Counted from the stretch's first letter, positions 2,176-59,465 are shown. The stretch is DNA of 64,000 bases from a virus (IMGVR_UViG_3300048881_000780), one strand, 5' to 3'. Numbers and translations: made by a program. The notes: generated by a model from the letters alone, not told the origin.

Positions 2176-2192
2176 TTAACACAAATCGTTAA
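2176..2192. promoter_or_regulatory. 17-bp palindromic operator-like site (representative of about 29 copies)
   Basis: TTAAC-ACAAATC-GTTAA between divergent ssb and the 2246 gene. Confidence 0.75.
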
Positions 2193-2245
2193 CTTTACAA
2201 AGTATGTGCACCTGTAATATCATTAATTCAACAAAGGAAAAGCAA

Positions 2246-2875
2246 ATGGATTCAATACTAATTGAAATAAAGACATATCTGGTATCACTCCTTGGCACCA
2301 ATAGTTCAGTGTTTTGTGTATTATTAGTATGCGTAACATTATTCTGCTTGGGTTATTTAAAAATAGTCGAAAAAAAATCAGAATATATAGCACTTCCCTT
2401 TTCCATTGTGATAACCTTTTGTGTTATTTTGGCTCATTTTTTCTATTCATCATCTGTTCCCTTAAAAAAGGGTATTTGCCTTACTATAAAAACAAACACT
2501 CTACCTAACTACAAACGCCTAATTAGCAAGCTGGCACTACTGAACGATGAGATTGACGAACATAAGTCGCTTAAGTCAAGTTGGATAAAAGCTTTAAACT
2601 TGAACCATAAAAGAGTTTCTCAACTTAAAGAAAGAGAGAGAATAATTAGAGAGTTAGAGTCTATGAAGTCTAAGCCGTATACATTCGTAGTCTTAGATAA
2701 CTTTAAATCCAAAGGTCTCTACTATATTACTCATAAAAATATGTACACCACTGAGATACCCGAGCTTGGTAATTACTTTATACAAAAGTGCAAAAAAAGT
2801 GATCAAGAAATAATAAAGAAATATTCTAATAACAAAGAAGAAACTTTAGCTAGAGTCAAATTTGTATCTAATTAG
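2246..2875 (+). CDS. membrane protein, tandem paralog 1 of 3
   Basis: two TM segments, coiled coil, shared KKGxCL..LDNFK..YSxNKE..FVS motifs. Confidence 0.75.
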   Translation: MDSILIEIKTYLVSLLGTNSSVFCVLLVCVTLFCLGYLKIVEKKSEYIALPFSIVITFCVILAHFFYSSSVPLKKGICLTIKTNTLPNYKRLISKLALLNDEIDEHKSLKSSWIKALNLNHKRVSQLKERERIIRELESMKSKPYTFVVLDNFKSKGLYYITHKNMYTTEIPELGNYFIQKCKKSDQEIIKKYSNNKEETLARVKFVSN

Positions 2876-2894
2876 AAGCTAAGGAGAAATAATT

Positions 2895-3518
2895 ATGAAT
2901 TCTATGGCTGGAACACATGTAACTTCCTCAATAATAGGTCTACTATCATTAGGAATCCCCTCTCTTATTATGATAACGTTTTATCATATTTCAAACTTAG
3001 ATGATAAGTCACCTTTATCATTAATATCTAACCCCCTCATAATTTTTAATATAGCTTACTTGTCTATTCTTGTTTTAATAGTAAATATTACTAAGCTTCC
3101 ACCAAAGATTGGAACTTGTATCACGACTAGACCGCACTACGAATTTCCCGAATATAAAAAAACAAAAAAACAGCTTAAAGAAATTGATGAAAAACTAGAA
3201 AAGTTTAAGTCATTTCGATCAAGCTGGAGTGAACTACCAAGTATCAAACTAAGAAAAGATGAATTACTTAAAGAAAAGAAAGACGTAGAAGGAAAATTAA
3301 AAGCTTTAATGGATAAAAAAGTTAAACTCATTGTTTTAGATAATTTCAAAGGTCACACTTTATATTACTCTTCATCTACAGATACATATACAACAGAAGT
3401 AACAAAACAAAAGAACTACTTTACCGAAAGATGTAGCAATAGTGATCAAGAAATTTTAAAGAACTATTCTAGCAATAAAGAAGAAATTTTAAATAATATT
3501 AAATTTGTTTCAAAATAA
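2895..3518 (+). CDS. membrane protein, tandem paralog 2 of 3
   Basis: same motifs (KIGTCI, LDNFK, YSSNKEE, KFVSK); AAGGAG RBS. Confidence 0.75.
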   Translation: MNSMAGTHVTSSIIGLLSLGIPSLIMITFYHISNLDDKSPLSLISNPLIIFNIAYLSILVLIVNITKLPPKIGTCITTRPHYEFPEYKKTKKQLKEIDEKLEKFKSFRSSWSELPSIKLRKDELLKEKKDVEGKLKALMDKKVKLIVLDNFKGHTLYYSSSTDTYTTEVTKQKNYFTERCSNSDQEILKNYSSNKEEILNNIKFVSK

Positions 3519-3531
3519 AAAAGGAGAGATT

Positions 3532-4158
3532 ATGGAATTCTTATATTCAATATTAACGTCAATGAAAATGTTTACAATTCAAGTGCTTGGAACTAATAAT
3601 TCCGACCCAATAATGTACATGATCGCCTTAATGTTAATTCCAGCATTGGCATCGTTTCTACACGGACTAGATAAAGAGAATGAAACCGCTGGTCTCTTCT
3701 TAATCGCTTTTATTGTAATGGGATCATTTAACTACCTTAGATTTTCAACATCTATTCATTTAAAAAAGGGTACTTGTTTAATTACAAAATCTCAAAAGCA
3801 TTCTAATAGATTAAATAGTTTATACGTTCTAGAAAACAACTTAAAGAAGTACCCAGGTCTTAAATCCGACTGGAGTGGAGTCCTACAAAAAGAAAAACGC
3901 TTACTCGTAAACAAAATAAAGAATTTAAAATCGGAGATTAAAACTCTAGAAAAAAGAGAGTCTAAATATATTGTCTTGGATAACTTTAAAGATAAGGGAC
4001 TCTACTACATGAGAAATAAAGAGAGTTATACAATCAATAGACCTACTGATGAAGTATATTTTAAAACTAAATGCAATACAAGTGATCACAGTATTATTGA
4101 GATGTACTCCAAGAATAAAGAGAGTATTTTAAATAACTTAAAAGTTGTATCTAACTAG
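3532..4158 (+). CDS. membrane protein, tandem paralog 3 of 3
   Basis: same motifs (KKGTCL, LDNFK, YSKNKE, KVVSN); AAGGAG RBS before ATG 3532. Confidence 0.75.
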   Translation: MEFLYSILTSMKMFTIQVLGTNNSDPIMYMIALMLIPALASFLHGLDKENETAGLFLIAFIVMGSFNYLRFSTSIHLKKGTCLITKSQKHSNRLNSLYVLENNLKKYPGLKSDWSGVLQKEKRLLVNKIKNLKSEIKTLEKRESKYIVLDNFKDKGLYYMRNKESYTINRPTDEVYFKTKCNTSDHSIIEMYSKNKESILNNLKVVSN

Positions 4159-5428: not shown

Positions 5429-5445
5429 TTGACATTTTATGTCAA
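5429..5445. promoter_or_regulatory. 17-bp palindromic operator-like site
   Basis: TTGAC-ATTTTAT-GTCAA in a divergent intergenic region. Confidence 0.7.
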
Positions 5446-5524
5446 GTCTTAACAAATTTCGGTAAATAGCACTCCTTCCTGCGATATAATTAGAAGTAAA
5501 GATAAACCAAAAACGGACAAAGAT

Positions 5525-8395: not shown

Positions 8396-9103
8396 CTAAG
8401 ACACCTTGAAAATATTTGGATATAACTTTAAAAGCTTTTGGATTATTTTATCTTTACTAAGCTTTGATAGATTGTTTCTTGCGATTAAAGCTGAAACTAG
8501 AGCTGTAGCAAAAGAGCTATCAATTATACTTGTATCTGGATCTACCCATATGTCTGCCTTAACTGTCAGACAGTTGTAGTAAGTTTTAATATAATTACCA
8601 ACGAGAATTGTTCTATTTGAATTAATCGACCTTGGAATAGATCTAAAATCCTTACACTCATTTGGAGTAGCTGAAACTAATAATGTTCCTGAATTAAATA
8701 AACTTGTATAGGCCTTTACTACATTACTAGAAAAATAGGTAGACATGTCAGAGTCATATATACTCAGGTTTAAAATATCCACATTCAATTTTGAAACACT
8801 TTCAATTTCACTATAAAATTTTTCATTATCAGAAACAGTCGAACTTTTCATAACTTTAATAGTGCTAGTTGCTAGTTTCGAAATTACAGACTGAACTCTT
8901 TTGGCGTGATTAATTCTCTCTGAATCTAAAATATGTAGAGTCTCTTTTTGAACTTTATTGAAATTTGACTTAACAATTTTTTTTAATAACTTATTACTAA
9001 AATCATTTCTAATTTCATAACCATTAACATACTCGCGCGACTCAACACTTGTTATTCCAATCATTAATAGCGCTATAAATATACTCTTCATTAAAGTATT
9101 CAT
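8396..9103 (-). CDS. secreted hypothetical protein
   Basis: signal peptide MKSIFIALLMIGITSVES. Confidence 0.6.
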   Translation of the reverse strand: MNTLMKSIFIALLMIGITSVESREYVNGYEIRNDFSNKLLKKIVKSNFNKVQKETLHILDSERINHAKRVQSVISKLATSTIKVMKSSTVSDNEKFYSEIESVSKLNVDILNLSIYDSDMSTYFSSNVVKAYTSLFNSGTLLVSATPNECKDFRSIPRSINSNRTILVGNYIKTYYNCLTVKADIWVDPDTSIIDSSFATALVSALIARNNLSKLSKDKIIQKLLKLYPNIFKVS

Positions 9104-9220
9104 ATTACTATTTTAAGTGGAAAAGGAGTGGTATTGATAACTATCAGCATATTTAGACTTCTCAACATAGATGATAGATAGACAGAGCCTATTTGCTGAC
9201 ACCTTGTGTCAAAAAATACA

Positions 9221-11146
9221 TTATATTCTCTTGTCAAAGTTTAATAAGTAATTGATTCCACTATTTAAATCTTGAATATAAAGTCTCTTTTGACCTGGGT
9301 TCCAATAGATATTCCCTAACTCCTTCAAATCAGGTAAAATGACTTCTCCCCCTGAACTTCTCTCCCCATTTGGGTTTTGAACTCTAGAATCATAGAAAAC
9401 TAAATCATAACTTAACTGATTCCCAACGATCTGATCCCAAATTAGAATGTCTCCACTGTGAGATTCTGCTGCGATGATCTTGTCATCCATTTGAGTAATT
9501 CGAATATTCTTAAAACTAATGCCATTATCCTTATAGGAATCTCCAATAAGTGACGGAGAATCCTCGCTAACTTGTCCAAGAGATAGTGAACTTTGACATC
9601 TCGGTTCCGTATAGAAGTTACTCAATGTTCCAAGACCAGGGTTTGAAATAAAACAAGCTGGAAACGATCCTGATATAGGAATGGTTTCCCACATTTGAAT
9701 TCGATGCTCAAGTAGAGATACTTTATCAGCTATCGGCTGGGAGAATTCTTCATTACAAAGTGCAAAGAATCTTCCACTATTTAAAAAACCAATTTGAGTT
9801 GGAGAGCTACAAATTTTGGATAACATCCCACTTGGAGAAAAAGAGTTTGTTGCAATATCGTAATTCATTTTTGCAGGATCGATATCGTCAAGAGAAAGTC
9901 TATCTTGTAACGAATAGTTTTCAAATGCGCTTGCTTGACCTAGAACATTATCAAATCTACATTTAGATGTTCCCCATGTGGTAAAAAGACATTCAAACTT
10001 TGCCCCTTGAGAAACAAAAACATTCTTTGCTATAACAATTCGGTTATTACACTTTTCAGAGATATATAAATCATTATCTCTGGCCGCTAGTCCAGTAGCG
10101 CAAAATAGTGCGCGATCTCCATGCGTATCAATTGAGTAAGTACTATTATCTGAAAAATCTGCCTTACCAATAACTCGATCTTGTTCACATTCATAATCGG
10201 TTAGTCTTCCGGTCTCATTAGATAGATGCCTACATCCATACCGAGGTAAGGAATCATAGATTCTTACTCCATCATCAGTGGCAACAACGAGTGATCCATT
10301 ATGCACTAGGATATCTCTAGGTGATGTTAAACACTCTCTTTCATTTAGGGTGTTTTCAGGGTCCTGGCATGAATACGAAGAACTTAGCGATGCTTGTCCC
10401 AATACAGCAACAGGTGACAGTGGAAAGTTTCTAACTGAATCTAAGCAAAACTCACGCAGATCACCTTCAAACTGAAAACAAGATAATGCCTGCGAATTTT
10501 CAAGTATTATAATTCGATTTCTAAAAGTATCAGCATAATAGGCCCTAAAACCATCGTCAGTAAAGGCCATTGCAGAGTTCTGATCACTTAGAATTGAATC
10601 TGTATATCTAGTATTAACAAAGATCGTATCATTTTGTTCTTTAGCAAAGTCTTGATATTTAATATGAGTCCAAAAGTCCATCGTTCTTGGAATCTCGCTC
10701 ACTAGCTCGTAACTATCTACATTCACTGTTGATGTTACTTTATCTGACCATTTTTCATTTAATTCAATATACCCATAGTATGTATAAACACTACCTCTAG
10801 GAAGTATTTTTAAATCACTAAATGACGTATCAGAACCTTCACCTATCTTACTTAAGTAAGCAGACGAATAAGGTTCCGCCGGATCTGGCAACTGGTAATC
10901 AACTCCGTCACCACTCACTCTGTAAATATGAACTTTATAATCCTGCCCCTTATAAAGAGCTGGGATTCGATAGGTAATATCAACCCCACCAATATCGTTT
11001 AAAGACGCATTAAAATCTATTAAATTGAATAAGTAGCCTCCAGGTCGATCACTTGGAGCATCGGGATCAAAGATATTCACGTCCTCTTTCTTTGATTGAG
11101 AACAAGAAATTAATAACATGGAGAGTATGATAATTAAGTACTTCAT
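9221..11146 (-). CDS. large lipoprotein with NHL-like/beta-propeller repeats
   Basis: lipobox LISC; repeated VLGQ/VIGK and YADTFRNRI, YISEKCNNRI motifs. Confidence 0.7.
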   Translation of the reverse strand: MKYLIIILSMLLISCSQSKKEDVNIFDPDAPSDRPGGYLFNLIDFNASLNDIGGVDITYRIPALYKGQDYKVHIYRVSGDGVDYQLPDPAEPYSSAYLSKIGEGSDTSFSDLKILPRGSVYTYYGYIELNEKWSDKVTSTVNVDSYELVSEIPRTMDFWTHIKYQDFAKEQNDTIFVNTRYTDSILSDQNSAMAFTDDGFRAYYADTFRNRIIILENSQALSCFQFEGDLREFCLDSVRNFPLSPVAVLGQASLSSSYSCQDPENTLNERECLTSPRDILVHNGSLVVATDDGVRIYDSLPRYGCRHLSNETGRLTDYECEQDRVIGKADFSDNSTYSIDTHGDRALFCATGLAARDNDLYISEKCNNRIVIAKNVFVSQGAKFECLFTTWGTSKCRFDNVLGQASAFENYSLQDRLSLDDIDPAKMNYDIATNSFSPSGMLSKICSSPTQIGFLNSGRFFALCNEEFSQPIADKVSLLEHRIQMWETIPISGSFPACFISNPGLGTLSNFYTEPRCQSSLSLGQVSEDSPSLIGDSYKDNGISFKNIRITQMDDKIIAAESHSGDILIWDQIVGNQLSYDLVFYDSRVQNPNGERSSGGEVILPDLKELGNIYWNPGQKRLYIQDLNSGINYLLNFDKRI

Positions 11147-11931: not shown

Positions 11932-12040
11932 TTTTAACTCCTATTTATTAACCTAATACACTTATCGTAATATCATTAGGCAATATTAATACTTGACAAG
12001 ACTAACGCAACACGTTAACATATATAAAAAAGGAGTTTCT

Positions 12041-12223
12041 ATGGACTACTATCTAATGATCTATATGGTTTTCTTTATTATTACCTTTTCTCTTTGTTGG
12101 AAATATCTAGAAAGTAAATCTCATAAAAACTCAAAAAAGGACAATCTTAACAAAATTGAAGATTTAAAAATTGAATTTGACCTAATGTTAAATGGTAAAT
12201 TATCAAGGAAGTTCTTTGAATAA
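12041..12223 (+). CDS. small membrane protein
   Basis: AAGGAG RBS, ATG 12041, single TM. Confidence 0.55.
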   Translation: MDYYLMIYMVFFIITFSLCWKYLESKSHKNSKKDNLNKIEDLKIEFDLMLNGKLSRKFFE

Positions 12224-12527
12224 GTTAGATCGATTAAAAAGACAAATTTCCAACCGTCTTAAACTAAATACTACTATTAATACAAGAGATACTAAGAAGA
12301 AGTATAATCATGCTTTCTCTATAGCTTTTTCTGTCAATACAGACAATGAAGGAAAAAGTGTTACAGAGGAAGAACTTCTCTGTGCGCTAGTCGGTAGAAT
12401 TAAGGATATCTCCGAGGGAAAGGACTGTGAAATGATTGAGGCATGTGGCCTTCCTCATGATACTTACTTAAATGATGAAAATGAGTCCTCCAAGTCGGAG
12501 AACCCTTGGTTAGCATCTCTTAAGTAA
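12216..12527 (+). CDS. hypothetical protein ending in NPWLASLK tag
   Basis: likely TTG start after AAGGAAG; C-terminal motif shared with BspA paralogs. Confidence 0.6.
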   Translation: MNKLDRLKRQISNRLKLNTTINTRDTKKKYNHAFSIAFSVNTDNEGKSVTEEELLCALVGRIKDISEGKDCEMIEACGLPHDTYLNDENESSKSENPWLASLK

Positions 12528-14883: not shown

Positions 14884-15534
14884 GTGTCAAATAATCGCTA
14901 CGAATTCATTATTCCAATCATAGAAGCACTCCTATTTGAGAAGGGAAAAATTCACTACAATGACATAATCAAGGCCATGAATCTTGAGATGACTCCCGAG
15001 ATGAAGGGTAATTTAACGCATATCATAGCTACCGATATTATTCCAAAAATGGTTAACTCATATCAATCACCGACTCATGGGATTGAAATACTGCACTTAG
15101 TTGAATTTCAAACACTAGAATTTGTAAGTAAGTCTAGATACTCTAGATTCTTAAGTCTAGATAAGACTACAATTGAGATGACTGATCGAACCAGAACAGT
15201 GTTGGCCTGCATTATCTTCAAAGGTCCAATTACAATGGGAGAGTTAACTAAGTATGTTGGTGAATGCTCTCACTTTGTTAGAATTCTCTGTCAGTTAAAT
15301 TATGTGAACTTTAAGTTAAATGGTAAGTGTAATTATATTTATTCCATTTCATCTAAATGTTTAGAGCTATTTAATGCTAATAGTACTAAACATCTAAAGG
15401 AAATGTTACTTGGGTTATCAAATGAAGTACCCTCTGATTATACTAGTAAAGACAGAGAAATCAAAAGCTTAAGTCGTATCAGCTCTAAGCTTAGAGACAA
15501 AAGAAGCAATATAAACATTAACACTATACGTTAA
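14884..15534 (+). CDS. scpB: ScpB-like winged-helix protein
   Basis: IIEALLF and VLACIIFKGPITMGEL match the two ScpB wHTH signatures. Confidence 0.6.
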   Translation: MSNNRYEFIIPIIEALLFEKGKIHYNDIIKAMNLEMTPEMKGNLTHIIATDIIPKMVNSYQSPTHGIEILHLVEFQTLEFVSKSRYSRFLSLDKTTIEMTDRTRTVLACIIFKGPITMGELTKYVGECSHFVRILCQLNYVNFKLNGKCNYIYSISSKCLELFNANSTKHLKEMLLGLSNEVPSDYTSKDREIKSLSRISSKLRDKRSNININTIR

Positions 15535-15766
15535 TATATACATATGATCTCATTATATGGGTATAAAAATACAGAAAAACCCTTTAAATTCAATTAGATA
15601 ATAAAACGGCCTTCGAGAATCCCTTGTGAGCCACTTTCCCCTCTACTCGAATCGATACTCCAATATTTAGTTTAAGAGGCCCATTTCCCCTTATCTGGCC
15701 TCGAGCATGTTCATTTATAACACCTCGTGTTATAATATATTACACAACACTAGGAGTTGCATAGAT

Positions 15767-16251: not shown

Positions 16252-16378
16252 AATTCCTTCCTTGTGTAATTATTTTTAACAGTCCGTGTTAAATTAAATG
16301 ATACTAAAACACTCGGGCATAGCGTGAGGGGTTTCTTTATTTAAGTTTGATTTTACAACTTTTTCAGATACTTGAGAG

Positions 16379-16954: not shown

Positions 16955-17357
16955 GGTTATATTTTAATAATTAAAAAGTGGTTTCAATATTTCCAAAATT
17001 AATTTTAAAGTGCCTAATTATATCTTCTCTAGTTAATTTAGACTCTGCTCTTCTTTTCTTGTTTTTTCGTCTTGCTCTATTTTTAAATTTCTCTTTATTT
17101 TCTTTTCTACAGAGAGACTCTTTTTCGTTAAATTCTTTTCTCTGCTTTTTACTTTTAAACTTTTTACAATGATTCAAAGTAACCTCCATTGATAATATTA
17201 TAAATAAATATAACATCTAGTGTCAAGACGTAACAAACAGAACCACGTAATTCCAGAAGCTTATCCACTTTTAAACTTTTTTCTATTTTATATTTTGACA
17301 AAGTACGACAATATTTATAACCTAAAACTAACACACTGCAACACACAGTAGGAATTT

Positions 17358-18086: not shown

Positions 18087-18390
18087 TAACGAAGATACAA
18101 TTATGGATTCAACTAATAAAGTCCCGGCGATGACTTCAACTAAAGAAGTTCCAACCTTGAATATTCTAAAATATGATAGTAATCGTAAACTCTACAATAG
18201 AGATCAAGCTGTCTACACGAATATCGAAAAAATTGCCAAAGCACTTATGGATAATCCTCATGTGAATCTTAAAATTGAAGATCAAGATAAGAAAGATATT
18301 TCAAAAGATGTTGTATACGCATGTTTGAAATATAAACTAGCAGATGAAAGTCTTACTACAGAAATGTTACTAGAGCTTTTTAAGGCATAA
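18070..18390 (+). CDS. PhaR-like (PHA regulator N-terminal DNA-binding domain) protein
   Basis: ILKYDSNRKLYN..YTNIEKIA..DISKDV resembles PhaR IKKYANRRLYN..YVTLEDLA..DIT. Confidence 0.65.
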   Translation: MESKVNNEDTIMDSTNKVPAMTSTKEVPTLNILKYDSNRKLYNRDQAVYTNIEKIAKALMDNPHVNLKIEDQDKKDISKDVVYACLKYKLADESLTTEMLLELFKA

Positions 18391-18391
18391 T

Positions 18392-18482
18392 AAAAAAAGG
18401 ACTCTTACGAGTCCTTTTTTACACACACATACACACACACATAAGGAGTAGGAGATTTGATCTAGAGATGATCGTTCCTACA
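18392..18482 (-). ncRNA. candidate sRNA, copy A
   Basis: TTGACG-N17-TATTAT promoter (18516..18488), 5' stem-loop, CUCCUACUCCUU, (UG)n tract, terminator with GUAA loop; paralog at 44878. Confidence 0.75.
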
Positions 18483-18577
18483 AATTCATAATATCGGCCA
18501 TAACGCAGGCCGTCAAGATATTTATTAATAAAAATTAAAAAATATTAAACCTTATAATATTTGAAATGAGAATTTAT

Positions 18578-21851: not shown

Positions 21852-21956
21852 TTATGTTCCTTAAGTTGTGTAGAACAATATTAACATACCTCCTTTCTTG
21901 ACACAAGCCGTTAACTTATCTTTTTATTGGCGCTACAAAAAGTCTTATAATGTAAG

Positions 21957-24012: not shown

Positions 24013-24041
24013 TTGACACGTCGTGTTAACTAATATACCCT
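24013..24041 (+). promoter_or_regulatory. sigma70 promoter with palindromic operator starting at the -35 box
   Basis: TTGACA-N17-TACCCT; TTGAC-ACGTCGT-GTTAA. Confidence 0.7.
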
Positions 24042-26416: not shown

Positions 26417-26453
26417 AAGACACGCTACGTCAAAACTTAACACGATTCGTTAA
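26417..26453. promoter_or_regulatory. tandem pair of palindromic operator-like sites
   Basis: AAGAC-ACGCTAC-GTCAA and TTAAC-ACGATTC-GTTAA, starts 20 bp apart, between divergent genes. Confidence 0.7.
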
Positions 26454-28467: not shown

Positions 28468-28569
28468 TTTTAAACATACTCCTTTTTAAGTTCCTGTTAT
28501 TACGTACATTATAATTTTTCCACTTGAGTTTTTAACACAATGTGTTAAGATACTTTTACTGGAGTTTTC

Positions 28570-29743: not shown

Positions 29744-29772
29744 TTGACATGACACGTTAACTAATATATTAT
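29744..29772 (+). promoter_or_regulatory. sigma70 promoter with palindromic operator
   Basis: TTGACA-N17-TATTAT; TTGAC-ATGACAC-GTTAA. Confidence 0.75.
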
Positions 29773-29778
29773 TTAATT

Positions 29779-30070
29779 AACAAAGGGTTCAACTCTAACC
29801 GCCAAGATGGCCAGCTTAGGAATCCAACTGTTAATATTCCAAATAGCTTCTAAGTATTAGAGGTAATGTTCAGGAAGAACGACTAGGAAGGAATAATTAA
29901 GAGGGAAAGTTTGTGATTAAATTAGACTTCTTTTAGAACTTTAATTTGTCAAAAACAAATCATTACATTAAGTGATGTCTCGCGTTTGAAAATTTGCTAA
30001 TGTCTCAACATCTCCTCGCTTCGTTTGAGCATATGACAATTGAATAACTAAAGATTTTCCTCTTGTTTTT
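29779..30070 (+). ncRNA. candidate structured ncRNA
   Basis: strong promoter, no ORF, several hairpins, long-range stem 29899/30064 followed by a U-tract. Confidence 0.35.
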
Positions 30071-33540: not shown

Positions 33541-33643
33541 ATTAAATCCTTTATAACTCTTATCGTAACCAAAGCCCTTTAACTCTCTCATCGTCTTAAA
33601 TTAATTTATAATTTAACAAATAGCGTTATTTTTTAATTTAAAA

Positions 33644-33670: not shown

Positions 33671-34105
33671 ATGAAAGTTAAATTTTTTAATGTCATGAAT
33701 ACAGAGGTTATAAAAGAAGGTAAAGTTAGACGTGAGATACTAGAAAATATCTTCAAATTAGGTGATCACAACCTTCTAGAGGATGCAGCGGGCTCTATTG
33801 GTGAGACTCTCATTGTAATGGAAGAAGATAGAGATGAGCATATTAAAAATATCCTATCTAAAGCTAAACTTGATATCGACGTTGATTTTGAAGTTGAATT
33901 GAATATTACGAACTCTTTGGCATCATCTTTTGCGTGTGACTTAAACTATATTGAACTTAGAATTAGTGCTCCAATGGATGATTTAACTATTTACTGTGAT
34001 GAAAAGACAAATAAAGTGCTATTTGATTCAATTTACGATTACTGTAAGGAAATTGCTCTAAATTGTGATGATTTTGCGGATAAATACTCTGAAATGGCAT
34101 CTTAG
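33671..34105 (+). CDS. hypothetical acidic protein
   Basis: GGAGG RBS. Confidence 0.6.
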   Translation: MKVKFFNVMNTEVIKEGKVRREILENIFKLGDHNLLEDAAGSIGETLIVMEEDRDEHIKNILSKAKLDIDVDFEVELNITNSLASSFACDLNYIELRISAPMDDLTIYCDEKTNKVLFDSIYDYCKEIALNCDDFADKYSEMAS

Positions 34106-34638
34106 GTGCCATTGCAGACTTTATTTGTCTCACTTAGCATATTTTTATGAATCTTTAAATTCCACTTCTTTTTAACTGCAATCCATTTTTTCATAAATTT
34201 ACAAGCATAAGACCTGTCTAGTGGTAGCCACTCCCTAGGTGTTCTATCACTTTTTGATCTATTTATTTTAAGGTGAGTAACTACTAGATTATCGGGATCA
34301 TTTGCAAATTGAACCCTTTTCTTCTTGCTCCAGCTCATAGCACCAGTAAGATAGGCTTCTTTTAGAGGTACTACGTGGTCGATATCGATTTTCTTAGCTA
34401 TGTAGATAGTCTTACCATCATAGAAGTCAACCCATTTACCAGTGTTAACCTTACAGCCCTTTTTCATCATTTTTACAGGTACTAGCGATTTGTCGATTAA
34501 TACTTCATGGCGCGTATTTTGACAGTCTTTATCAAAATCTTTCCAGTGACCAAAATGAGTGGATCTCTTGTACTTGGCCTCAACGTGAGTTATAGCAAAT
34601 AATGCTAATATAAGGAGTAATCTTACTAATATTTTCAT
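34102..34638 (-). CDS. secreted HNH-family nuclease (DUF1524-like)
   Basis: signal peptide; IDIDHVVPL, FANDPDNL, NRSKSD, WLP. Confidence 0.85.
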   Translation of the reverse strand: MKILVRLLLILALFAITHVEAKYKRSTHFGHWKDFDKDCQNTRHEVLIDKSLVPVKMMKKGCKVNTGKWVDFYDGKTIYIAKKIDIDHVVPLKEAYLTGAMSWSKKKRVQFANDPDNLVVTHLKINRSKSDRTPREWLPLDRSYACKFMKKWIAVKKKWNLKIHKNMLSETNKVCNGT

Positions 34639-34678: not shown

Positions 34679-34924
34679 TTAGATATCTGTAGATAGAATT
34701 GTTGAAATCGATATTCCCAGTGGCCTAGCTAGTGCCGCGGCCACTTCTTTAGTAATGGCAAGCTCACCCGTTTCGTATTTAGATATTAAAGTAGCCTCGA
34801 TTTGAGTTTTCATTTCTAGTGATTTGAGACTTAAATTAAGAGCTTCTCTTCTTGAGCGAATTATATCACCAGGGATTCTGTTGGGTATGAAGTCATTTAT
34901 CATCTCTTTCCAATTTTCACTCAT
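34679..34924 (-). CDS. XRE-family HTH regulator
   Basis: PGDIIRSRREALNLS..ISKYETG..AAALARPLG. Confidence 0.8.
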   Translation of the reverse strand: MSENWKEMINDFIPNRIPGDIIRSRREALNLSLKSLEMKTQIEATLISKYETGELAITKEVAAALARPLGISISTILSTDI

Positions 34925-35312: not shown

Positions 35313-35359
35313 ATGTACCCACCTCAAGAATAACACACTTACCGCATCGTGTCAAAATA

Positions 35360-35689: not shown

Positions 35690-35808
35690 ATTTAATCCTT
35701 TTTCTTAACACTATACGTTATTTTGTTAAAGTTTATCTATCTTTCTTCCGTTATTAGTTATAAGCTCTGTGGTTTAGGGACTTATCACTTTTTTCTACCT
35801 CGAGGGAA

Positions 35809-36687: not shown

Positions 36688-36808
36688 AATATCTCCCTTT
36701 TTATCACTTATCGTAATCTTAACACAATGCGGTAAAATATAAACTAGTCCGAGTTTTCAAGGGGTTATATTGTAATGAGATTAAAAAAATGCCTAAAAGA
36801 CAAGGCAA

Positions 36809-37489: not shown

Positions 37490-37578
37490 ATAATCATCCT
37501 TTAATTACTTATCGTTAAAACTTTACAAATATTTACAAAGTAAACACAAAGCGTTAAAATATATCTAAGGAGATTTCA

Positions 37579-37785: not shown

Positions 37786-37998
37786 ATTTTATAAATAAAA
37801 TAAATTAACAGAGATAGTTAAGAATTAAATAAAATCAATTAAGAAATATAAAGATTTCTTTAGTTAAGACGCCAAGCTTAATAATTTTTATTTCCAGACT
37901 TGGGTCATACCCATCGCCCAAATCGCTATTTATCACTAATCTATACAATATTTAGACATTTCTTTGCATTTTAATAATTTCTCTCTTAAAGTTATCTT

Positions 37999-38664
37999 AT
38001 GGAGAGAATTTTATTTATTGATGATAACCAAGATGATCTAGATTATTACTATGATTTTCTTTGCGATCACTACTTAGTTGACCTTGAGAGAGAAGCTGCC
38101 TGCTTTGAGGACTACCTAAGGGAAAATATTTATCAGGCCATAATTATTGATGTTCACAATGGAATAATGAGTGGTTTTGAAGTGAGAGAAGATATTCTCT
38201 CTTCTAATTATTATAACGACTGCCCCATTATATTTAAAACATCTTATGATAGTGACGAGAATATTGAAAAGGGTCTGAGCTCTAATTGTGAATATATCAC
38301 ACCAGAAATGAAACCAGATCAAATTAGATTAAGAATAAAAAATCAAATTGATTCCCATCCTGTTAAATACTTTGGTGGGCTTAGATTTGATGTTCTAAGA
38401 AATGAGTTTAATTTCACAAAGAAAGAAATGAAGTTAACTCCCACCGAATTTAATATTATTAGACTTCTTTTTATGAATAGCTTTTCAATCTCTAAGGAAC
38501 TTCTTATTGAATCGATTTGGCCCAATGATAAAAATATAACTGAAGACCGAGTTCACACTCACGTCTCAAACACTAGAAATAAAATTGATAAATTCAATAT
38601 TCAAATAAAGTCCAATAAAGAAGAGGGGTATTATCTTGAACTTATTCAAGACGGGAAAAACTGA
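37999..38664 (+). CDS. OmpR-type response regulator
   Basis: ILFIDDN, IIIDV receiver domain; LTPTEF..ISKELL..IW..HVSNTRNKI winged helix. Confidence 0.9.
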   Translation: MERILFIDDNQDDLDYYYDFLCDHYLVDLEREAACFEDYLRENIYQAIIIDVHNGIMSGFEVREDILSSNYYNDCPIIFKTSYDSDENIEKGLSSNCEYITPEMKPDQIRLRIKNQIDSHPVKYFGGLRFDVLRNEFNFTKKEMKLTPTEFNIIRLLFMNSFSISKELLIESIWPNDKNITEDRVHTHVSNTRNKIDKFNIQIKSNKEEGYYLELIQDGKN

Positions 38665-39802
38665 TTACGAGAAAATGGTTCAATTAGTCCAGATTAACGG
38701 ATTAATGATCTTACTTACTATCTTCTTAGACTATTACAAACTCCAGGTTGTTAATAATTTATTTCACCATGTATTAATTAAACTGGCATTTATATCACTC
38801 CCTTTTATAGCTCTGCAATTTTATAGATTTGAAAAGATTAAAGACTGGGTTCCTCTTCTTTTATATATTTGTGTATTCAGTTATTCGTCTTTCTTTGTTT
38901 TAAATTATCACTTCTCTTATTATATGGCATTTCTTCACTATCTAATTGTTACGCCAATTTTTATCAATATAAAGAAGAAGCCGTTTTTATATGCAAATGT
39001 GATAGCTTTGATTATCGTCGTGGTTACAAGTATTAATATTCCAAATGTAGATATAACTGGTCGAGAGATATCAGCAGAAATTATAAATAGCTATGCTCTC
39101 TTATTCTTTGTTGTCGTTATTTGGTACATGGGTGTACTAACTCAGAGACAAAAAGAAGAAGATAATAATAAAGTGTTTTCCGAGCTAGGAAAGGTGTCAT
39201 CATTTCTTTTACATGAGTTAAGTAGCCCTGTTTCGAGATTGGCCAATAAAGCATCAAATAGTGAAGAACACTCCCGTGAGATCGATCAAATTAAAAACCT
39301 TCTTCAACTAACTAAAGCAATTTCACAAAAACGATCGGAAATTAAAAAAGATGAATTTAAACTATCCACTCTTTCTAACTACTATATCGATGAATACTCT
39401 AGGACAATTGATAGACTTGATATAGAGGTGGATGTCGAAGAGAGGAATCGAGTAGTTAATTCTAACGCTACTTTTGTTGATATCATTGTTAAAAATATTA
39501 TTAAAAATGCAATTGAACATTTAAAGACATTAGAAAGTAATAATAAAAAAATTGTTATTAGAGAAATTAGTGACGAAAAGAAAGAAGTCTTACGTATTTC
39601 CAATACAGCTGAGAAAAAATCTAAGAAAGAAATAAATGAAATGTTCAGTCCACTCTATTCAACCAAGAAAACAAAGTATGGGTCTAATCAAGGAATAGGC
39701 CTTTTTATATCTAAGAGAATGGCCGAGGGATTGGGGATTAATATCAATTGTTTTTGTAAAGATGATCTCATTCATTTTGATGTAGAATTTCCACTAAGCT
39801 AG
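38636..39802 (+). CDS. membrane sensor histidine kinase
   Basis: multiple TM; HELSSP H-box, KNAIEH N-box, FSPLYSTK, GIGLFIS. Confidence 0.85.
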   Translation: MNLFKTGKTDYEKMVQLVQINGLMILLTIFLDYYKLQVVNNLFHHVLIKLAFISLPFIALQFYRFEKIKDWVPLLLYICVFSYSSFFVLNYHFSYYMAFLHYLIVTPIFINIKKKPFLYANVIALIIVVVTSINIPNVDITGREISAEIINSYALLFFVVVIWYMGVLTQRQKEEDNNKVFSELGKVSSFLLHELSSPVSRLANKASNSEEHSREIDQIKNLLQLTKAISQKRSEIKKDEFKLSTLSNYYIDEYSRTIDRLDIEVDVEERNRVVNSNATFVDIIVKNIIKNAIEHLKTLESNNKKIVIREISDEKKEVLRISNTAEKKSKKEINEMFSPLYSTKKTKYGSNQGIGLFISKRMAEGLGININCFCKDDLIHFDVEFPLS

Positions 39803-41635: not shown

Positions 41636-42211
41636 TTAACTTGAGGCAAATGGTGTTAGAGACAGCTCTGATTGAGGCTGGAGAATGAGAACTTCCCTAT
41701 CTTCTTGTATTTGCTTGGCCCAAGTGGCATCAATATACTTAAAGAAGTTCATTTTACTTAAAATTAAAACCGAGTGAATAATATCATCAAAGTGAAATTC
41801 TTCTTTATTTCTGTCTAAAGTAATTAGATACCCATTAGGATTTTGCATCTGCATGGTTAAAGGTAGCGAAATTTCACTATTAGGATTTGCGTATTTTTTT
41901 GCGATATCTAAATCTTCACTGAATGATATTAAATTATAGTTTTTAAAAGGTGCCAAAGTCTTCTTTTCTTCAGCAAAGATAACTCCTCTATGAATTAGCT
42001 TTGGCATATTTAAGTCCATTTTTATTTGATCAAGTTCTGCCATTAGATTAAATTGATGCTTATTAAAGAACTCCTGTATGTAAGGGTCAAACCCCAGTAA
42101 GACATAGTGAATGAAAAATAGAAGCTCTTCTGAGTGTCGAGAACCCTCTTTAGCTAGGTACCTAGATACAAACTCCTGTGATTTAAATTTAATTATTTCA
42201 TGTAGCACCAT
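41636..42211 (-). CDS. putative R-S-E class ADP-ribosyltransferase
   Basis: LIHRGV, ISFSEDLDIAKKYA, EDREVLI in the expected order. Confidence 0.55.
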   Translation of the reverse strand: MVLHEIIKFKSQEFVSRYLAKEGSRHSEELLFFIHYVLLGFDPYIQEFFNKHQFNLMAELDQIKMDLNMPKLIHRGVIFAEEKKTLAPFKNYNLISFSEDLDIAKKYANPNSEISLPLTMQMQNPNGYLITLDRNKEEFHFDDIIHSVLILSKMNFFKYIDATWAKQIQEDREVLILQPQSELSLTPFASS

Positions 42212-42357
42212 GGTAACCTCTAGTATCTCTTATAGTACAAAATAAATTATATAGACAAGTTTAATTGTAACCTTTTTATATTGTCAGTATTTTGTCTATC
42301 TAGAGAATAACACCTTATGTCAAATTTTCAAGAAATATTAACATTTCATGTTACAAA

Positions 42358-44635: not shown

Positions 44636-44877
44636 TAATTTCCCATGGCCATTTATATTTATAATCTTTCTAAATCCATTGAAAGTTTGCTAATGATCGA
44701 AGTGTGGTCAATCACTAACAGAACTTAGAATACAACAATTAACACATTGTGTCAAATAACGACTTAACAAGTTTTTATCACATTACTTAAGTGCAAGTAA
44801 TTAAAAGCTTTTTTAAATTAAGGTTTTATTTATAATTTAAATATTGACGACCTGCGTTAAGACCGATATTATAAACT

Positions 44878-44965
44878 TGTAGGAACGACCAATTCTAGGT
44901 CAAATCTCCTACTCCTTATGTGTGTGTATGTGTGTGTAAGAAGAGACTCGAAAGAGTCTCTTTTT
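44878..44965 (+). ncRNA. candidate sRNA, copy B
   Basis: TTGACG-N17-TATTAT promoter at 44844-44872; same architecture as 18392-18482 with compensatory changes. Confidence 0.75.
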
Positions 44966-45022
44966 ATTTTAAGATTTACATTTATAACGCATCATGTTAA
45001 AATAAATTAAAGCGAGGTAGAT

Positions 45023-45157
45023 ATGTCAAATAGAACTATACAAGAAGATTGTTCTCACTCTTTTAACTGTGATGGTTTTTGCGAGTACTGTGGAATATCA
45101 GAGCACGATTACGAATCATCATGCTGTAGCGGCGAGGAGATTGGTCGTTATGAATAA
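45023..45157 (+). CDS. 44-aa Cys-rich zinc-finger-like peptide not in ORF track
   Basis: GAGGT RBS; MSNRTIQEDCSHSFNCDGFCEYCGISEHDYESSCCSGEEIGRYE. Confidence 0.55.
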   Translation: MSNRTIQEDCSHSFNCDGFCEYCGISEHDYESSCCSGEEIGRYE

Positions 45158-46424
45158 GACTTCTCCCTTTATTAGTACATGGAAAATTATAGATAAGAGA
45201 ATTACTTTTCCTTTTAAGAGAAGTGCTAATATTAATTGCACTATCGACTGGGGAGATGGAACGCAATCTCATGTTACTAACTACTTTGATAAGAATAATA
45301 CTCACATCTATAAAGAAAATGGTGAGTATGAAATTAGTATTGTCGGAGATATATTCGAGCTTGATATAAAGCTTGAGGAAAGTGCGAGAATAGTTAAAGT
45401 TTCATCTATGGGTAGATGCTCTTGGAGAGTTTTTAAAGCAATGTTTTGTGAATGTCTGTATCTAAGAGAGTTTAACTCTGGAGACTGTGACTCTTCCTAT
45501 ATAAGCGATATGTATTCTATGTTTAACGGTTGTAAGAGCTTAAAAAAGGTAGTTATTGATTCTTTTGATACTTCAAATGTTTTTGATATGGAATTTATGT
45601 TTGCTAATTGTGAAAACCTAAATTCCTTGCAATTAAAAAACTTTACAAATGAAAGTGTTGTTACAATGCGAGGAATTTTTGAAGGACTCTCAAAGTTAAA
45701 AAGATTAAACTTATCAGACTTTAAGACTCCTAGGGTGCAGATTTTTTCTAGTATGTTTTCGAGTTGTACCAGCTTAAAGAAACTAAACTTAAAATCCTTT
45801 AATACGAGTAATGCTAAATCAATGATTAGTATGTTTAATGCTACTGTATCTCTAGAAAGTCTCGATATCTCTACTTTTCAAACTGGAAACGTTATAGATA
45901 TGCGCTCCATGTTTAATCGCTGCTATGTAAGTGAGCTTAAACTAGATCACTTTGACACGTCATATGTATCATCGATGGAAAATATGTTCAGAGGAATGAT
46001 CAATCTCAAAGAGATAGATATTTCAAATTTTAATATTAAAAATGCTCTATCTCTTCATGGATTATTTAATTCTTGCTCTAGTCTTAAAAAAATAAATTTT
46101 GGAGAAATTAATACCTCAAGAGTTAGAGATTTAAGCTATATGTTTAATAATTGTAGCTCTCTTGAATCCTTGGACTTATCTACCTTTGAGACCTCAAGAG
46201 TTCAATCGATGGATAATATGTTTTACTCTATTCCAGAAAAGTTAAAGGTTGATATAACTCACTTTGATTTTGATAAATTAGAGCAAAATCCGTTCAGGTT
46301 CACTAAAAGTAAGCTTATAATAGATAGTAGGTATAAAAAACACTTTAAAGAGTCTGAAGCTAAAGGTGTAGAATTTGGGGTCAATAAGAGAAGGCATCCC
46401 TGGTTCAAATCATTGTACGCTTAA
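45150..46424 (+). CDS. BspA/DUF285 LRR protein 1
   Basis: GAGGAG RBS, start MNKTSPFISTW; IDWGDG PKD-like domain; FxTSxVxxMxxMF repeats; ends HPWFKSLYA. Confidence 0.9.
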   Translation: MNKTSPFISTWKIIDKRITFPFKRSANINCTIDWGDGTQSHVTNYFDKNNTHIYKENGEYEISIVGDIFELDIKLEESARIVKVSSMGRCSWRVFKAMFCECLYLREFNSGDCDSSYISDMYSMFNGCKSLKKVVIDSFDTSNVFDMEFMFANCENLNSLQLKNFTNESVVTMRGIFEGLSKLKRLNLSDFKTPRVQIFSSMFSSCTSLKKLNLKSFNTSNAKSMISMFNATVSLESLDISTFQTGNVIDMRSMFNRCYVSELKLDHFDTSYVSSMENMFRGMINLKEIDISNFNIKNALSLHGLFNSCSSLKKINFGEINTSRVRDLSYMFNNCSSLESLDLSTFETSRVQSMDNMFYSIPEKLKVDITHFDFDKLEQNPFRFTKSKLIIDSRYKKHFKESEAKGVEFGVNKRRHPWFKSLYA

Positions 46425-50778: not shown

Positions 50779-50835
50779 ATATTCTCCAGAGATATTAATA
50801 ATAACACTGTTAACGCAACATGTCAATATACATTT

Positions 50836-53967: not shown

Positions 53968-54070
53968 TTTATCTATATTAATAACAAGCCTCTCTAGATT
54001 TGATATTAACATATTTTTTATTTTCTAACAAGTTGCGTTAAAAACAATCAATAATTAGACATAGTTAGAA

Positions 54071-57086: not shown

Positions 57087-57164
57087 ATTAACCTCTGTAC
57101 TAAGTTCTATCTATATTTTATAATATTTAACATATTATGTCAAAAAATAAACTATGGATACAGT

Positions 57165-57365
57165 ATGGTTTTTGAAATATTAATAATATGGATACTCCTT
57201 GGGTCACTTTCTTGTAATATTGCTTGGATGTTACAAATGAGGGCAGCTAGTTCTGTAGATATGCGCTATAGTCCCTATTTATTGGGCATTATGTTGTTTT
57301 TAGTGTTCGGTCCATTCTCGCTACTGATTAGTAAAATATTTAAAAGGATTAAAAATGCAAAATAG
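57165..57365 (+). CDS. small two-TM protein
   Basis: hydrophobic, ends in GPFSL plus basic tail. Confidence 0.55.
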   Translation: MVFEILIIWILLGSLSCNIAWMLQMRAASSVDMRYSPYLLGIMLFLVFGPFSLLISKIFKRIKNAK

Positions 57366-57729
57366 AGTTTCAAGTATTACAGAAGCTAGAGATATAATTG
57401 ATAAATTTCACGCTCGAAAAATAATGATTCATAATGGGAAAAGGTGGAGTGTTGCCTCAGTGAAAAGAATTATCCCTATGATTAGTAATTACCCAAAAGG
57501 GCCAATAGATGATATTGAAATCCTAATTAATAAAGAAAAGAATCACTACTTTTCAGCACTCTGTTTATTTGGAAAAAGATCATGGGTTAAAGATATTAGG
57601 ATTTGTGATGATTATAATAGAAATTCCCTAAAGATGGTAGCAATTCATCCTACTCCTAAAAATGATGAGATGATCATTAGAGTGGCCAGATTTATTAAAT
57701 TAATTTACTTAAAACAAAAGACGAAATGA
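57355..57729 (+). CDS. hypothetical protein
   Basis: overlapping start/stop in operon. Confidence 0.55.
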   Translation: MQNRVSSITEARDIIDKFHARKIMIHNGKRWSVASVKRIIPMISNYPKGPIDDIEILINKEKNHYFSALCLFGKRSWVKDIRICDDYNRNSLKMVAIHPTPKNDEMIIRVARFIKLIYLKQKTK

Positions 57730-58574
57730 GTTCTTTTAGATTTGTAATAAATATTCCCAATGATGATACAGTCGTAAGTATGAGAGTTTATGAAGAGTAT
57801 CGTTATAGTTTTAAAGTTAATTGGGGAGATGAATGCTTTGGTAGTTACACTTATCGAAACAAGAGTCGCAACATAATACATCATACTTTTGAAAAAGCTG
57901 GAGAATATACTATTGTAATGAGTGGCAGGATTGGCAAAATCAGAGCGGAGGAAACTTTATTTAAATATATAACTGAGGTTATAGATTTAGGAGATTGTAA
58001 GTGGCAGGATTTATCATTCATGTTCGCTGAATGTAATAATATGGTTAGATTTAAAGGTGGCATTACTTCTGATGTTAAATCAATGGATCATATGTTCACA
58101 GATTGCAAGAAACTGAGTTTTTTAGATATTTCTAGTTTTGACACTTACAATGTAACTAATATGAGAGGTATGTTTACAGGACTCTCCAAACTCAGTCATA
58201 TTGACGTTAGTCACTTCAACACCTTCAATGTTACGGATATGTCGCATATGTTTAGAGGTATGAAATCACTTAGACATTTAAGCATATCTAACTTTCGATT
58301 TAAAGGCCCTGTCAATATGGGCCTTAGTTTTGATGATTTGAACTCCTGTGAGGTATTGGATCTAAGACACTTAGATTTTAGTAAGATAGATCTATACTTA
58401 ATTAATGATGTTAGAAGTTATCAGAACTGTTTTAAGTATGGACCAAAGAAGGTAATTGTTAAGCTAGAGGATTTTTGTAAGTACTTTAAGGGTAATCCGC
58501 GCGTTTACGGATTAGTTGAAGATAGAAGAAAGAATAGCTGGTTAAACTCGCTAGATATCGAGGATTTCAAATGA
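57726..58574 (+). CDS. BspA/DUF285 LRR protein 7
   Basis: VNWGD, FDTYNVTNMRGMF repeats; ends NSWLNSLDIEDFK. Confidence 0.88.
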   Translation: MSSFRFVINIPNDDTVVSMRVYEEYRYSFKVNWGDECFGSYTYRNKSRNIIHHTFEKAGEYTIVMSGRIGKIRAEETLFKYITEVIDLGDCKWQDLSFMFAECNNMVRFKGGITSDVKSMDHMFTDCKKLSFLDISSFDTYNVTNMRGMFTGLSKLSHIDVSHFNTFNVTDMSHMFRGMKSLRHLSISNFRFKGPVNMGLSFDDLNSCEVLDLRHLDFSKIDLYLINDVRSYQNCFKYGPKKVIVKLEDFCKYFKGNPRVYGLVEDRRKNSWLNSLDIEDFK

Positions 58575-58894
58575 AAAAGCAAATTATAAAACTTAATTCC
58601 CACCTAATACCAAAAGTAAAGAGTGCTAGAAAAATGGCCACTACTAGACTTGGAATAAAGAGTAAGTATCATGTGGGCCCATTTGTAATTGAAGATGCGA
58701 GTGATTCCGATAAAATTTATGATTTTTCACTTTATATTTGTAGAATAGAATTAATTCGATTTAAAGAAATTGATATAGATCTCGCGAATGTTGAGGGTTA
58801 CGATTATGTTGATGATTTCAAGGCAGAGTTAGTGAAAATCTACGGAAAGATAAAAGAAAGTGATTTTCTAACGGTGATCTATTTCTCCTCATAA
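58571..58894 (+). CDS. ASCH domain protein
   Basis: VKSARKMATTR and ANVEGY..F..L..IY..VIYF. Confidence 0.8.
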   Translation: MKKQIIKLNSHLIPKVKSARKMATTRLGIKSKYHVGPFVIEDASDSDKIYDFSLYICRIELIRFKEIDIDLANVEGYDYVDDFKAELVKIYGKIKESDFLTVIYFSS

Positions 58895-58899
58895 TTAAA

Positions 58900-59235
58900 T
58901 TACAATATTCTAAAATCCCTATAATCTTCAATATAAACATGAGATATTACACCAAAGTGAAGATCTAGATACTGCTGATACATTGGATAGTCTTCATTTA
59001 CAACTATATCACTATCAACCTGGAAAAAAGGAGTTTTTTCAGATGGCCCCTCTTCACTAACAAGAGCTCTTCTAGAGAATAATATTAAAACCTTTGAATC
59101 TACTAGGCCTTGCTCTTTAAGAATATCCGTTTGTTCTTCGATATACTTATGGGCCTTCCCATAGCTTGTAAAGACTCTCCCTAAAGATTTCGTATCGTTA
59201 TTTTCAAATTGCACAACTATTAATCTCTCGTTCAC
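58900..59235 (-). CDS. hypothetical protein
   Basis: AGGAG RBS with GTG start, CGATAAG element. Confidence 0.55.
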   Translation of the reverse strand: MNERLIVVQFENNDTKSLGRVFTSYGKAHKYIEEQTDILKEQGLVDSKVLILFSRRALVSEEGPSEKTPFFQVDSDIVVNEDYPMYQQYLDLHFGVISHVYIEDYRDFRIL

Positions 59236-59465
59236 AAAGACTCCTATTTGTTAACTTATCGTAATTACTATCTCCTAAAGTAATTCGCGATACTATCCAG
59301 TGATCCTCTTACTAATTAAGACCAGGTTGTATTTACGTACAGTACACTCTAAACAGTTGTTTTCTATATGTATTTAAAATTTTAACACATTTCGTTAAAA
59401 AATAAATTAACAAAGTCATCCTTTCAAACTACAATTAATTAACACGCCACACAAGTGAGAAAATT

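Follow-up and report, generated by a model that had tools for sequence, protein, structure and literature searches.

What reads a 17-bp palindrome that recurs about once every 2 kb along a 64,000-nt stretch of DNA assigned to a virus (IMGVR_UViG_3300048881_000780)? The whole stretch is called the window here, and all site counts and gene scans refer to it. The word, TTRAC-R-N5-Y-GTYAA, was picked out by an original prediction that listed 29 sites and attributed them to one dimeric regulator of dozens of genes and of two small-RNA genes. Our analysis leads to a more specific answer: a single dimeric repressor is likely to use the palindrome as its operator, occluding core promoters of the sigma70 type; it would be a sequence-specific DNA-binding protein, probably of the helix-turn-helix (HTH) type and encoded by the element itself. 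A dimer bound on a core promoter would keep RNA polymerase off, and loss or inactivation of the repressor would switch on most of the element together. We infer three parts of this answer, namely that a protein binds the sites, that the sign of control is negative and that the element encodes the binder.

The word is far more frequent than chance allows. The exact pattern TTRACR-N5-YGTYAA occurs 14 times in the window, with 0.05 copies expected from 100 dinucleotide-preserving shuffles (maximum in any shuffle, 2). When up to two mismatches were allowed we found 71 matches with 40 expected, so that these looser matches are mostly chance. We therefore relied on a symmetric weight matrix, seeded with the exact sites and iterated, which returned 28 strong sites at a threshold of >=14 bits (0.23 expected) and 33 at >=10 bits (2.1 expected). 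All 29 of the start positions listed previously were recovered, the weakest being 26417 and 42338, as was a variant noted at 1671; two further sites, at 5449 and 17295, had not been listed. The described purine at the first and pyrimidine at the last base of the spacing also held, with a purine at position 6 and a pyrimidine at position 12 in ~98% of arms. C is preferred at position 7 and G at position 11, which makes TTAACAC-N3-GTGTTAA the ideal word. The centres of the half-sites lie 10 bp apart, or one helical turn, and the three pairs of neighbouring sites are spaced by 20, 20 and 31 bp, about two and three turns, as would be expected if dimers bound cooperatively along one face of the helix.

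Crude open reading frame (ORF) calls cover 90% of the window, yet non-coding DNA and gene boundaries account for at least 24 of the 28 strong sites (binomial P = 3e-20), as had been claimed; an equal frequency in coding and intergenic DNA, which would speak against a regulatory role, was not seen. When starts supported by Shine-Dalgarno sequences were used, three of the four apparent exceptions (12002, 15717 and 50810) were also found upstream of genes, and the fourth, 15518, overlaps a stop codon. Among promoter-bearing gaps, taken as intergenic gaps next to one or more gene starts, 24 of 34 (~70%) hold a site; counted by gene-start sides, the figure is 36 of 53. The genes concerned include those of DNA metabolism (ssb, RNase H, SprT-like and helicase genes), many orphan genes, DUF285 surface-type proteins and the two small-RNA genes.

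We oriented each site toward the gene that it precedes and scored sigma70-type promoters by consensus match only. Two registers emerged. In register A, the left arm, in the form TTGAC(A/G), is itself the −35 hexamer, and a TAnnnT −10 box follows after 16–18 nt (17 nt in most), at site position 24–25. Twelve arms are used in this way, including the four, at 18500, 24013, 29744 and 44844, for which this role had been proposed. In register B, a separate −35 hexamer (TTGACA, TTTACA, TTGAGT or TTGAAA) lies 2–3 nt upstream of the site, and the final TAA or TAT of the right arm opens the −10 hexamer (TAACAT, TAAAAT, TAAGAT, TATAAT or TATTCT) at position 15, with a spacer of 16–17 nt; sites 12002, 15717, 28532, 37541, 42307 and 44984 are of this kind. 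The TG of the right arm then coincides with the TG position of an extended −10 box, and in four cases the start codon is only 21–22 nt past the site, which implies very short leaders. Register A centres the site near −27 and register B does so near −18; either position falls within the DNA that RNA polymerase must occupy. This placement inside core promoters argues for the predicted single regulator, symmetric and of the dimer type, over dozens of transcription units and both small-RNA genes.

The same comparison accounts for the variable base of the word. A TAnnnT box is found 16–18 nt downstream of 12 of 21 TTGAC arms, as against 2 of 43 TTAAC arms (Fisher p = 5.7e-6), indicating that TTAAC is the operator proper and TTGAC the form taken where the arm doubles as a −35 box. 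This double use largely explains the R/Y wobble at positions 3 and 15. The two arms vary independently, with complementary pairs between them as numerous as expected from independence (positions 3/15, p = 0.41; positions 6/12, p = 1.0), which points to a protein site read arm by arm, as by a dimer, and not to a hairpin. Sites in register A lie upstream of the transcription start and cannot act in RNA. The promoters of these registers come close to the consensus, their spacers being 17 bp long (TTGACA-17-TATTAT or TAAAAT); they should fire unaided and would need a brake rather than an activator. A bolder idea, which we regard as rather doubtful, is that the binder is no ordinary Cro-like repressor and reads promoter elements as such, since the half-site resembles a −35 box on one strand (TTGACA/TTAACA) and the start of an extended −10 box on the other (TGTTAAnnT). 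One element-encoded dimer would then compete with sigma70 for the same bases at most promoters, and giant plasmids of predatory Bdellovibrionota would share such a switch as a trait of their lineage, each with a private word.

The SSB of the window (1684-2118, − strand) is 60–74% identical to chromosomal SSBs in metagenome-assembled genomes (MAGs) of Bacteriovoracaceae and Halobacteriovoraceae, and 45% identical to that of a Bdellovibrio plasmid discussed below; the window ssb may thus be a host-derived copy, and the identities make it probable that the host is a marine predator belonging to the class Bacteriovoracia. A comparison with the host chromosome had been suggested, and we ran it on this class, using 238 Bacteriovoracia genomes (~0.75 Gb) in place of the true host. 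The exact pattern occurred 0–8 times per genome and at ~332 sites in total (half of 664 match rows, as each palindromic site is matched on both strands), which overall is fewer than for the reversed pattern, used as a control. None of the 238 genomes had the word in excess, and its density in the window (14 exact copies in 64 kb) is ~500 times theirs. We also scanned the surroundings of ssb in 80 Bdellovibrionota MAGs, 1.11 Mb in all. Six matrix hits reached >=13 bits, none of them at a conserved position; these ssb loci are chromosomal and, beyond common families, have no other window genes in common. The word is thus private to the element, which makes a host regulon such as SOS unlikely.

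Plasmid and phage collections yielded no near relative of the element by DNA or by several of its proteins. Only the 641-aa lipoprotein-like gene at 9221-11146 led to one: its sole match in the plasmid collection is on plasmid pBdHM1 of Bdellovibrio sp. HM001 (AP029175.1; 161 kb, 49% G+C), which encodes homologues of five to six window proteins. The word of the window was not found in pBdHM1. A de novo palindrome search of this plasmid instead returned a word of its own, ATAYC-N6-GRTAT, with a 6-nt spacer, at 40 sites of >=14 bits (0.4 expected). By the deposited annotation ~31 of these 40 are intergenic, often ~20–30 nt ahead of a start codon. The exact form is present 15 times in the 161 kb of pBdHM1 (control, 1), compared with 5–20 times in each of four related chromosomes of 2.3–3.4 Mb, so that it is 10–40 times denser on the plasmid. 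For four of five shared genes, each element has its own palindrome at the promoter region of the gene or operon, a coincidence that is weak evidence given the site densities. Twin overlapping copies stand directly before a 72-aa HTH_3 gene of pBdHM1 (81378-81596), an arrangement typical of repressors that control their own gene. The two elements thus resemble each other in having a private, mostly intergenic palindrome near start codons and differ in the word itself; what seems to be conserved in the plasmid lineage is the strategy, and what has diverged is the word. We found no published work on the pBdHM1 palindrome.

pBdHM1 also carries a second word, TCTATWWATAGA, at five sites (record positions 42050, 65971, 80458, 96642 and 147954; 0.08 expected). 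A GGAGG ribosome-binding site follows every copy within a few bases, and in sequence the word is similar to late promoters of the T4 type (TATAAATA).

Other readings of the palindrome account for part of these observations. Were it a positive promoter element that needs an element-encoded activator or a sigma-appropriating factor, the promoters would be element-specific, and both the presence of the word on ~70% of promoter regions and the likeness of its half-site to a −35 hexamer would follow naturally. We consider this unlikely: the two registers differ by 9 bp in where they place the site with respect to the −10 box, which leaves no fixed geometry for activation, and the promoters concerned are already near consensus. 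In register B, moreover, the site fills the spacer and the −10 box, a place used only by activators of the MerR type, and those act on a dyad in a spacer of 19–20 bp; spacers here are mostly 17 bp (range, 16–18), which leaves no room for such a mechanism. It is scarcely credible that no specific protein is involved and that the palindrome reflects back-to-back −35 boxes, or a hairpin or cruciform in RNA or DNA. TTGACA is indeed the −35 consensus, 12 arms serve as −35 boxes and several sites lie in divergent gaps. However, sites also occur between co-directional genes, neither arm is a −35 box in register B, the commoner arm, TTAAC, makes a poor −35 box, and positions 6, 7, 11 and 12 are conserved outside the hexamers. 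A hairpin is countered by the lack of compensatory variation between the arms and by the register A sites that lie outside the RNA.

A specific protein could also come from the host, if the element exploited a global regulator such as a lineage-specific LexA-, Fur- or CRP-like protein. The many regulated genes of DNA metabolism (ssb, RNase H, helicase and SprT-like) recall SOS regulons, and LexA motifs are known to differ widely among phyla (PMC8565304). Nevertheless, the word matches none of the LexA motifs of that study (among them CTGT-N8-ACAG, TTAC-N3-GTAA, GGTT-N10-AACC, GTTC-N7-GTTC, CTAA-N5-TTAG and GGA-N5-TCC; PMC8565304). It is neither in excess in the 238 Bacteriovoracia genomes nor present at the ssb promoters of this likely host class, and the different word of pBdHM1 is equally private to its plasmid; control by the host is therefore quite unlikely. 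No match to Peptidase_S24 was reported in the window. Sites of the ParB or KorB type, that is, centromere-like palindromes that also silence nearby promoters by spreading or sliding, would explain a 16–17-bp palindrome scattered over a large plasmid-like replicon, as are the KorB OB sites of IncP-1 plasmids. A protein that silences at a distance has no need of strict overlap with the core promoter, and overlap in two registers at about one site per 2 kb fits direct occlusion instead; a ParB-like protein was not seen among the 100 window ORFs scanned with Pfam, and we hold this explanation to be very improbable. Direct occlusion by an element-encoded repressor remains the reading that we prefer.

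Several observations weigh against that repressor. About one-third of the sites are clean in neither register (for example, 2176, 16276, 35705, 36719, 54025 and 59382), and several end 11–26 nt ahead of a start codon, meaning either that the leaders are very short or that the site is downstream of the transcription start. No HTH protein of the window is both classically autoregulated and conserved in pBdHM1, no RNA runs containing the element are listed, and the probable assignment of the host to Bacteriovoracia derives from a single protein, SSB.

We find no support for any of the three HTH proteins put forward as candidate binders. The 123-aa HTH_3 gene at 1056 lacks a global site. It has instead its own palindrome, AACAAAATA-N4-TATTTTGTT, with 9-bp arms at 1004-1025, right after a TG-extended −10 box (region 989-1025), and looks like a local autoregulator. 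The protein at 34679 is a small HigA-like member of the Xre family, encoded within a regulated operon before an HNH/GmrSD_C nuclease gene; among solved structures it comes closest to the antitoxin HigA, with a weak E-value, no relatives were found in IMG/VR, and it is a weak candidate. At 63133, only the toxin-binding domain of MbcA/ParS-type antitoxins was matched, and this below the Pfam threshold. A response regulator at 37999 is a minor candidate. It is an ordinary OmpR-family member with an acidic pocket whose promoter holds only a degenerate site, at 37805, and the boxes of OmpR/PhoB-type proteins are normally hexamer direct repeats with ~11-bp periodicity, whereas the arms here are inverted. 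TTAACA with a 5-nt spacer presumably resembles the half-sites of Bacillus subtilis PhoP and WalR, which we take as a lead only. The ORFs behind the twin operators (26509 and 4721) had neither a Pfam match nor a useful Atlas neighbour.

Table 1. Proposed operator sites in the window and two loci that encode candidate binders.
Position	Strand	Feature	Score (bits)	Context
1671..1687		Operator-like site	14.7	Convergent gap, HTH gene 1056-1427 / ssb 3' end
2176..2192		Operator	17.7	Divergent gap, ssb (start 2118, −) / gene 2204 (+)
5429..5445		Operator	15.9	First of twin, 20 bp apart; divergent gap 5365 (−) / 5525 (+)
5449..5465		Operator	13.7	Second of twin with 5429
9196..9212		Operator	17.9	Upstream of gene 8396-9103 (−)
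12002..12018	+	Operator	17.5	Spacer/−10 register: TTGACA, 3 nt, site; −10 TAACAT from position 15; ATG 12041, 22 nt past site
15518..15534		Operator	18.3	On stop codon of ScpB-like gene 14884-15534
15717..15733	+	Operator	15.8	Spacer/−10 register, −10 TATAAT from position 15; gene start 15767
16276..16292	−	Operator	15.7	Start 16251 (−), 24 nt away
17210..17226	−	Operator	14.3	−35 register TTGACA-18-TATAAT; gene start 17189 (−)
17295..17311	+	Weaker operator	11.0	−35 register TTGACA-17-TAACCT; SprT/metallopeptidase-like gene 17358 (+)
18500..18516	−	Operator	14.5	−35 register TTGACG-17-TATTAT; small-RNA copy 1 (about 18392-18480, −)
21898..21914		Operator	17.7	Divergent gap, helicase gene (start 21719, −) / gene 22077 (+)
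24013..24029	+	Operator	21.9	−35 register TTGACA-17-TACCCT; gene 24115 (+)
26417..26433	−	Operator	11.9	−35 register TTGACG-17-TAAAAT; SprT-like/DUF2786 gene (start 26384, −); twin of 26437, 20 bp
26437..26453	+	Operator	19.5	Second of twin; upstream of operon from 26509 (+)
28532..28548	+	Operator, perfect palindrome	21.9	Spacer/−10 register TTGAGT-16-TAAGAT; RNase H gene 28570 (+); divergent start 28467 (−)
29744..29760	+	Operator	18.0	−35 register TTGACA-17-TATTAT; overlapped by TTGAAC-18-TATATT promoter of gene 29663 (−)
33613..33629		Operator	15.2	Divergent gap 33591 (−) / 33671 (+)
34679..34924	−	81-aa HTH_3 (Xre/HigA-like) gene		Third in operon under site 35339; then GmrSD_C/HNH nuclease gene 34102-34638
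35339..35355	−	Operator	19.1	−35 register TTGACA-17-TATTCT; operon 35312 to 34102 (−) with HTH_3 gene
35705..35721	−	Operator	15.8	Start 35689 (−), 15 nt away
36719..36735	−	Operator	19.1	Start 36687 (−), 31 nt away
37541..37557	+	Operator	15.7	Spacer/−10 register TTTACA-17-TAAAAT; gene 37579 (+), ATG 21 nt past site; divergent start 37489 (−)
37999..39802	+	OmpR-family response regulator 37999-38664 and histidine-kinase-like gene 38636-39802		Minor candidate binder
42307..42323	−	Operator	16.2	Spacer/−10 register TTGAAA-16-TATTCT; gene 42211 (−); pair with 42338, 31 bp
42338..42354		Weaker operator	11.8	Partner of 42307
44739..44755	−	Operator	21.9	−35 register TTGACA-17-TATTCT; operon from 44635 (−)
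44844..44860	+	Operator	17.6	−35 register TTGACG-17-TATTAT; small-RNA copy 2 (about 44880-44965, +)
44984..45000	+	Operator	17.6	Spacer/−10 register TTTACA-17-TAAAAT; ATG 45023 (44-aa Cys-rich ORF, ahead of DUF285 gene) 22 nt on
50810..50826	−	Operator	20.1	−35 register TTGACA-17-TATTAT; gene start 50778 (−)
54025..54041	−	Operator	16.7	DUF285 gene start 54012 (−), 12 nt away
57127..57143		Operator	17.7	−35 register TTGACA-17-TAAAAT, gene 57086 (−); ATG 57165 (+) 21 nt away
59382..59398	+	Operator	19.5	M17 peptidase gene 59466 (+) 67 nt on, first of co-directional run to 63507

The window has a G+C content of 32% and is densely packed with short genes in both orientations, most of them without a Pfam match (100 ORFs scanned). 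Those that can be recognized encode SSB, RNase H, two SprT-like proteins, a helicase, a C5 methylase, a ClpB-like ATPase, M17 and S49 peptidases, several DUF285 leucine-rich-repeat proteins, an OmpR-type two-component pair and a ScpB-like protein; scans of the window for tRNAs and Rfam families found none. Two DNA sequencing runs, both vent metagenomes, contain the stretch, one of them being probably its source, and their contigs gave only short identical pieces without informative variants.

The two small-RNA-like units, at 18380-18530 (−) and 44830-44980 (+), are 89% identical paralogues, each with an operator and promoter in register A. Both have a 5' hairpin with compensatory changes (GATC..GATC in one, GACC..GGTC in the other), a CUCCUACUCCU anti-Shine-Dalgarno stretch, a (GU)n run and an intrinsic terminator, also with compensatory changes. 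A further transcript is suggested at 29744-30070 (+), where the strong TTGACA-17-TATTAT promoter leads into ~300 nt free of ORFs (29761-30070), toward the 3' end of the convergent gene 30071-31828. A simple scan found no terminator in 29744-30070, and the transcript may be a long non-coding or antisense RNA. At 1671-1700 (+), the left arm of the site serves as the −35 hexamer of a promoter-like TTGACA-18-TATCAT that is antisense to the 3' end of ssb, and may be an antisense promoter. The 44-aa cysteine-rich ORF at 45023-45157 (+) has a Shine-Dalgarno sequence and overlaps the DUF285 gene 45069-46424; the GTG annotated as the start of the latter probably lies too far upstream. The proteins encoded by 12192-12527 and 45069-46424 are unrelated but end in similar tryptophan-containing peptides (ENPWLASLK and HPWFKSLYA).

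If our reading is correct, one repressor on most promoters would amount to a single master switch of a large element, which could respond to entry into a new cell, to loss of the repressor or to a signal, and this would account for a replicon of such size and cost staying quiet in its host. The element apparently comes from predatory Bacteriovoracia of hydrothermal vents, a group with almost unknown mobile elements, and the finding of the same strategy with a different word in its only relative suggests that the regulatory architecture is conserved in the plasmid lineage. In practical terms, the operator offers a handle for capturing the regulator by DNA affinity, and it flags the promoters and small RNA genes of a genome in which orphan genes predominate.

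Some classes of repeated DNA can be set aside. The attC sites of integrons are imperfect palindromes of 57–141 bp at the 3' ends of cassettes, which are co-oriented and promoterless; here a 17-bp word is fused to promoters and genes run in both orientations, and we rejected an attC or other recombination site. An RNA hairpin, a DNA-uptake sequence, a restriction or methylation target and a terminator were likewise rejected, given that the word is placed on promoters, that its arms vary independently and that the likely host lineage lacks it. The only near match to the word in the literature, the HsdC direct repeat of Mollicutes (GTGTTAA-N4-GTGTTAA), has a different architecture.

Closer parallels are found among the master regulators of plasmids and phages. 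KorA is a small dimeric HTH repressor whose OA operators, of graded quality, lie on several plasmid promoters and provide coordinated, copy-number-sensitive control of the backbone (PMC2665229). OA is a 12-bp word, GTTTAGCTAAAC, present at seven promoters of the 60-kb IncP-1 plasmid RK2/RP4, where KorA acts together with KorB, a global repressor of RP4 (PMC2665229). The element resembles this system in having one palindrome on several promoters and differs from it in the word, which is unrelated to OA and is 17 bp long, and in the coverage, with ~30 sites in 64 kb on ~70% of promoter regions; no homologues of KorA or KorB, which IncP-1 plasmids encode with IncC in an autoregulated operon, were found by Pfam among the 100 window ORFs. 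The 134-kb phage SPbeta of Bacillus subtilis provides a second parallel. A 15-bp word, SPBRE, was seen in many of its intergenic promoter regions and was recognized decades later as the site of the master repressor MrpR (YopR), a protein with a tyrosine-recombinase fold that binds ~10 promoter regions (PMC10516654). Both cases present a repeated word across the promoter regions of a large mobile element, and again the words differ.

Immunity repressors with many sites over a whole mobile genome are exemplified by the C1 repressor of P1 and by the stoperators of Cluster A mycobacteriophages, the latter being asymmetric, orientation-dependent and able to block elongation within transcription units (PMC6550527, PMC9283540). 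The sites described here are, by contrast, symmetric and placed on promoters. The P1 C1 operator is also asymmetric, and the sites of these systems are bound by monomers or in an oriented manner. The closest match in geometry is to the CI and Cro proteins of lambda type, which bind 17-bp pseudo-palindromes with half-sites one helical turn apart over −35 and −10 boxes, as found here, although their operators are restricted to one or two switch regions. A scan of IMG/VR with the ideal word gave chiefly single matches attributable to chance, and was informative only for the switch regions of two phages, L115 (1990-2195) and L117 (1680-1875). Each comprises an integrase, an ImmA-like protease and an Xre-type repressor, three TTAACA-N5-TGTTAA operators and then a cro-like gene, showing that a dimer of the Cro/CI type can read this word. 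The L115 repressor has no significant similarity to the HTH_3 proteins at 1056 and 34679, and the word shared by these phages and the vent element is apparently the result of convergence. Master control of this logic is thus known from plasmids and phages; the present case differs in the word, in its coverage and in the systematic double use of a half-site as −35 box or −10 start.

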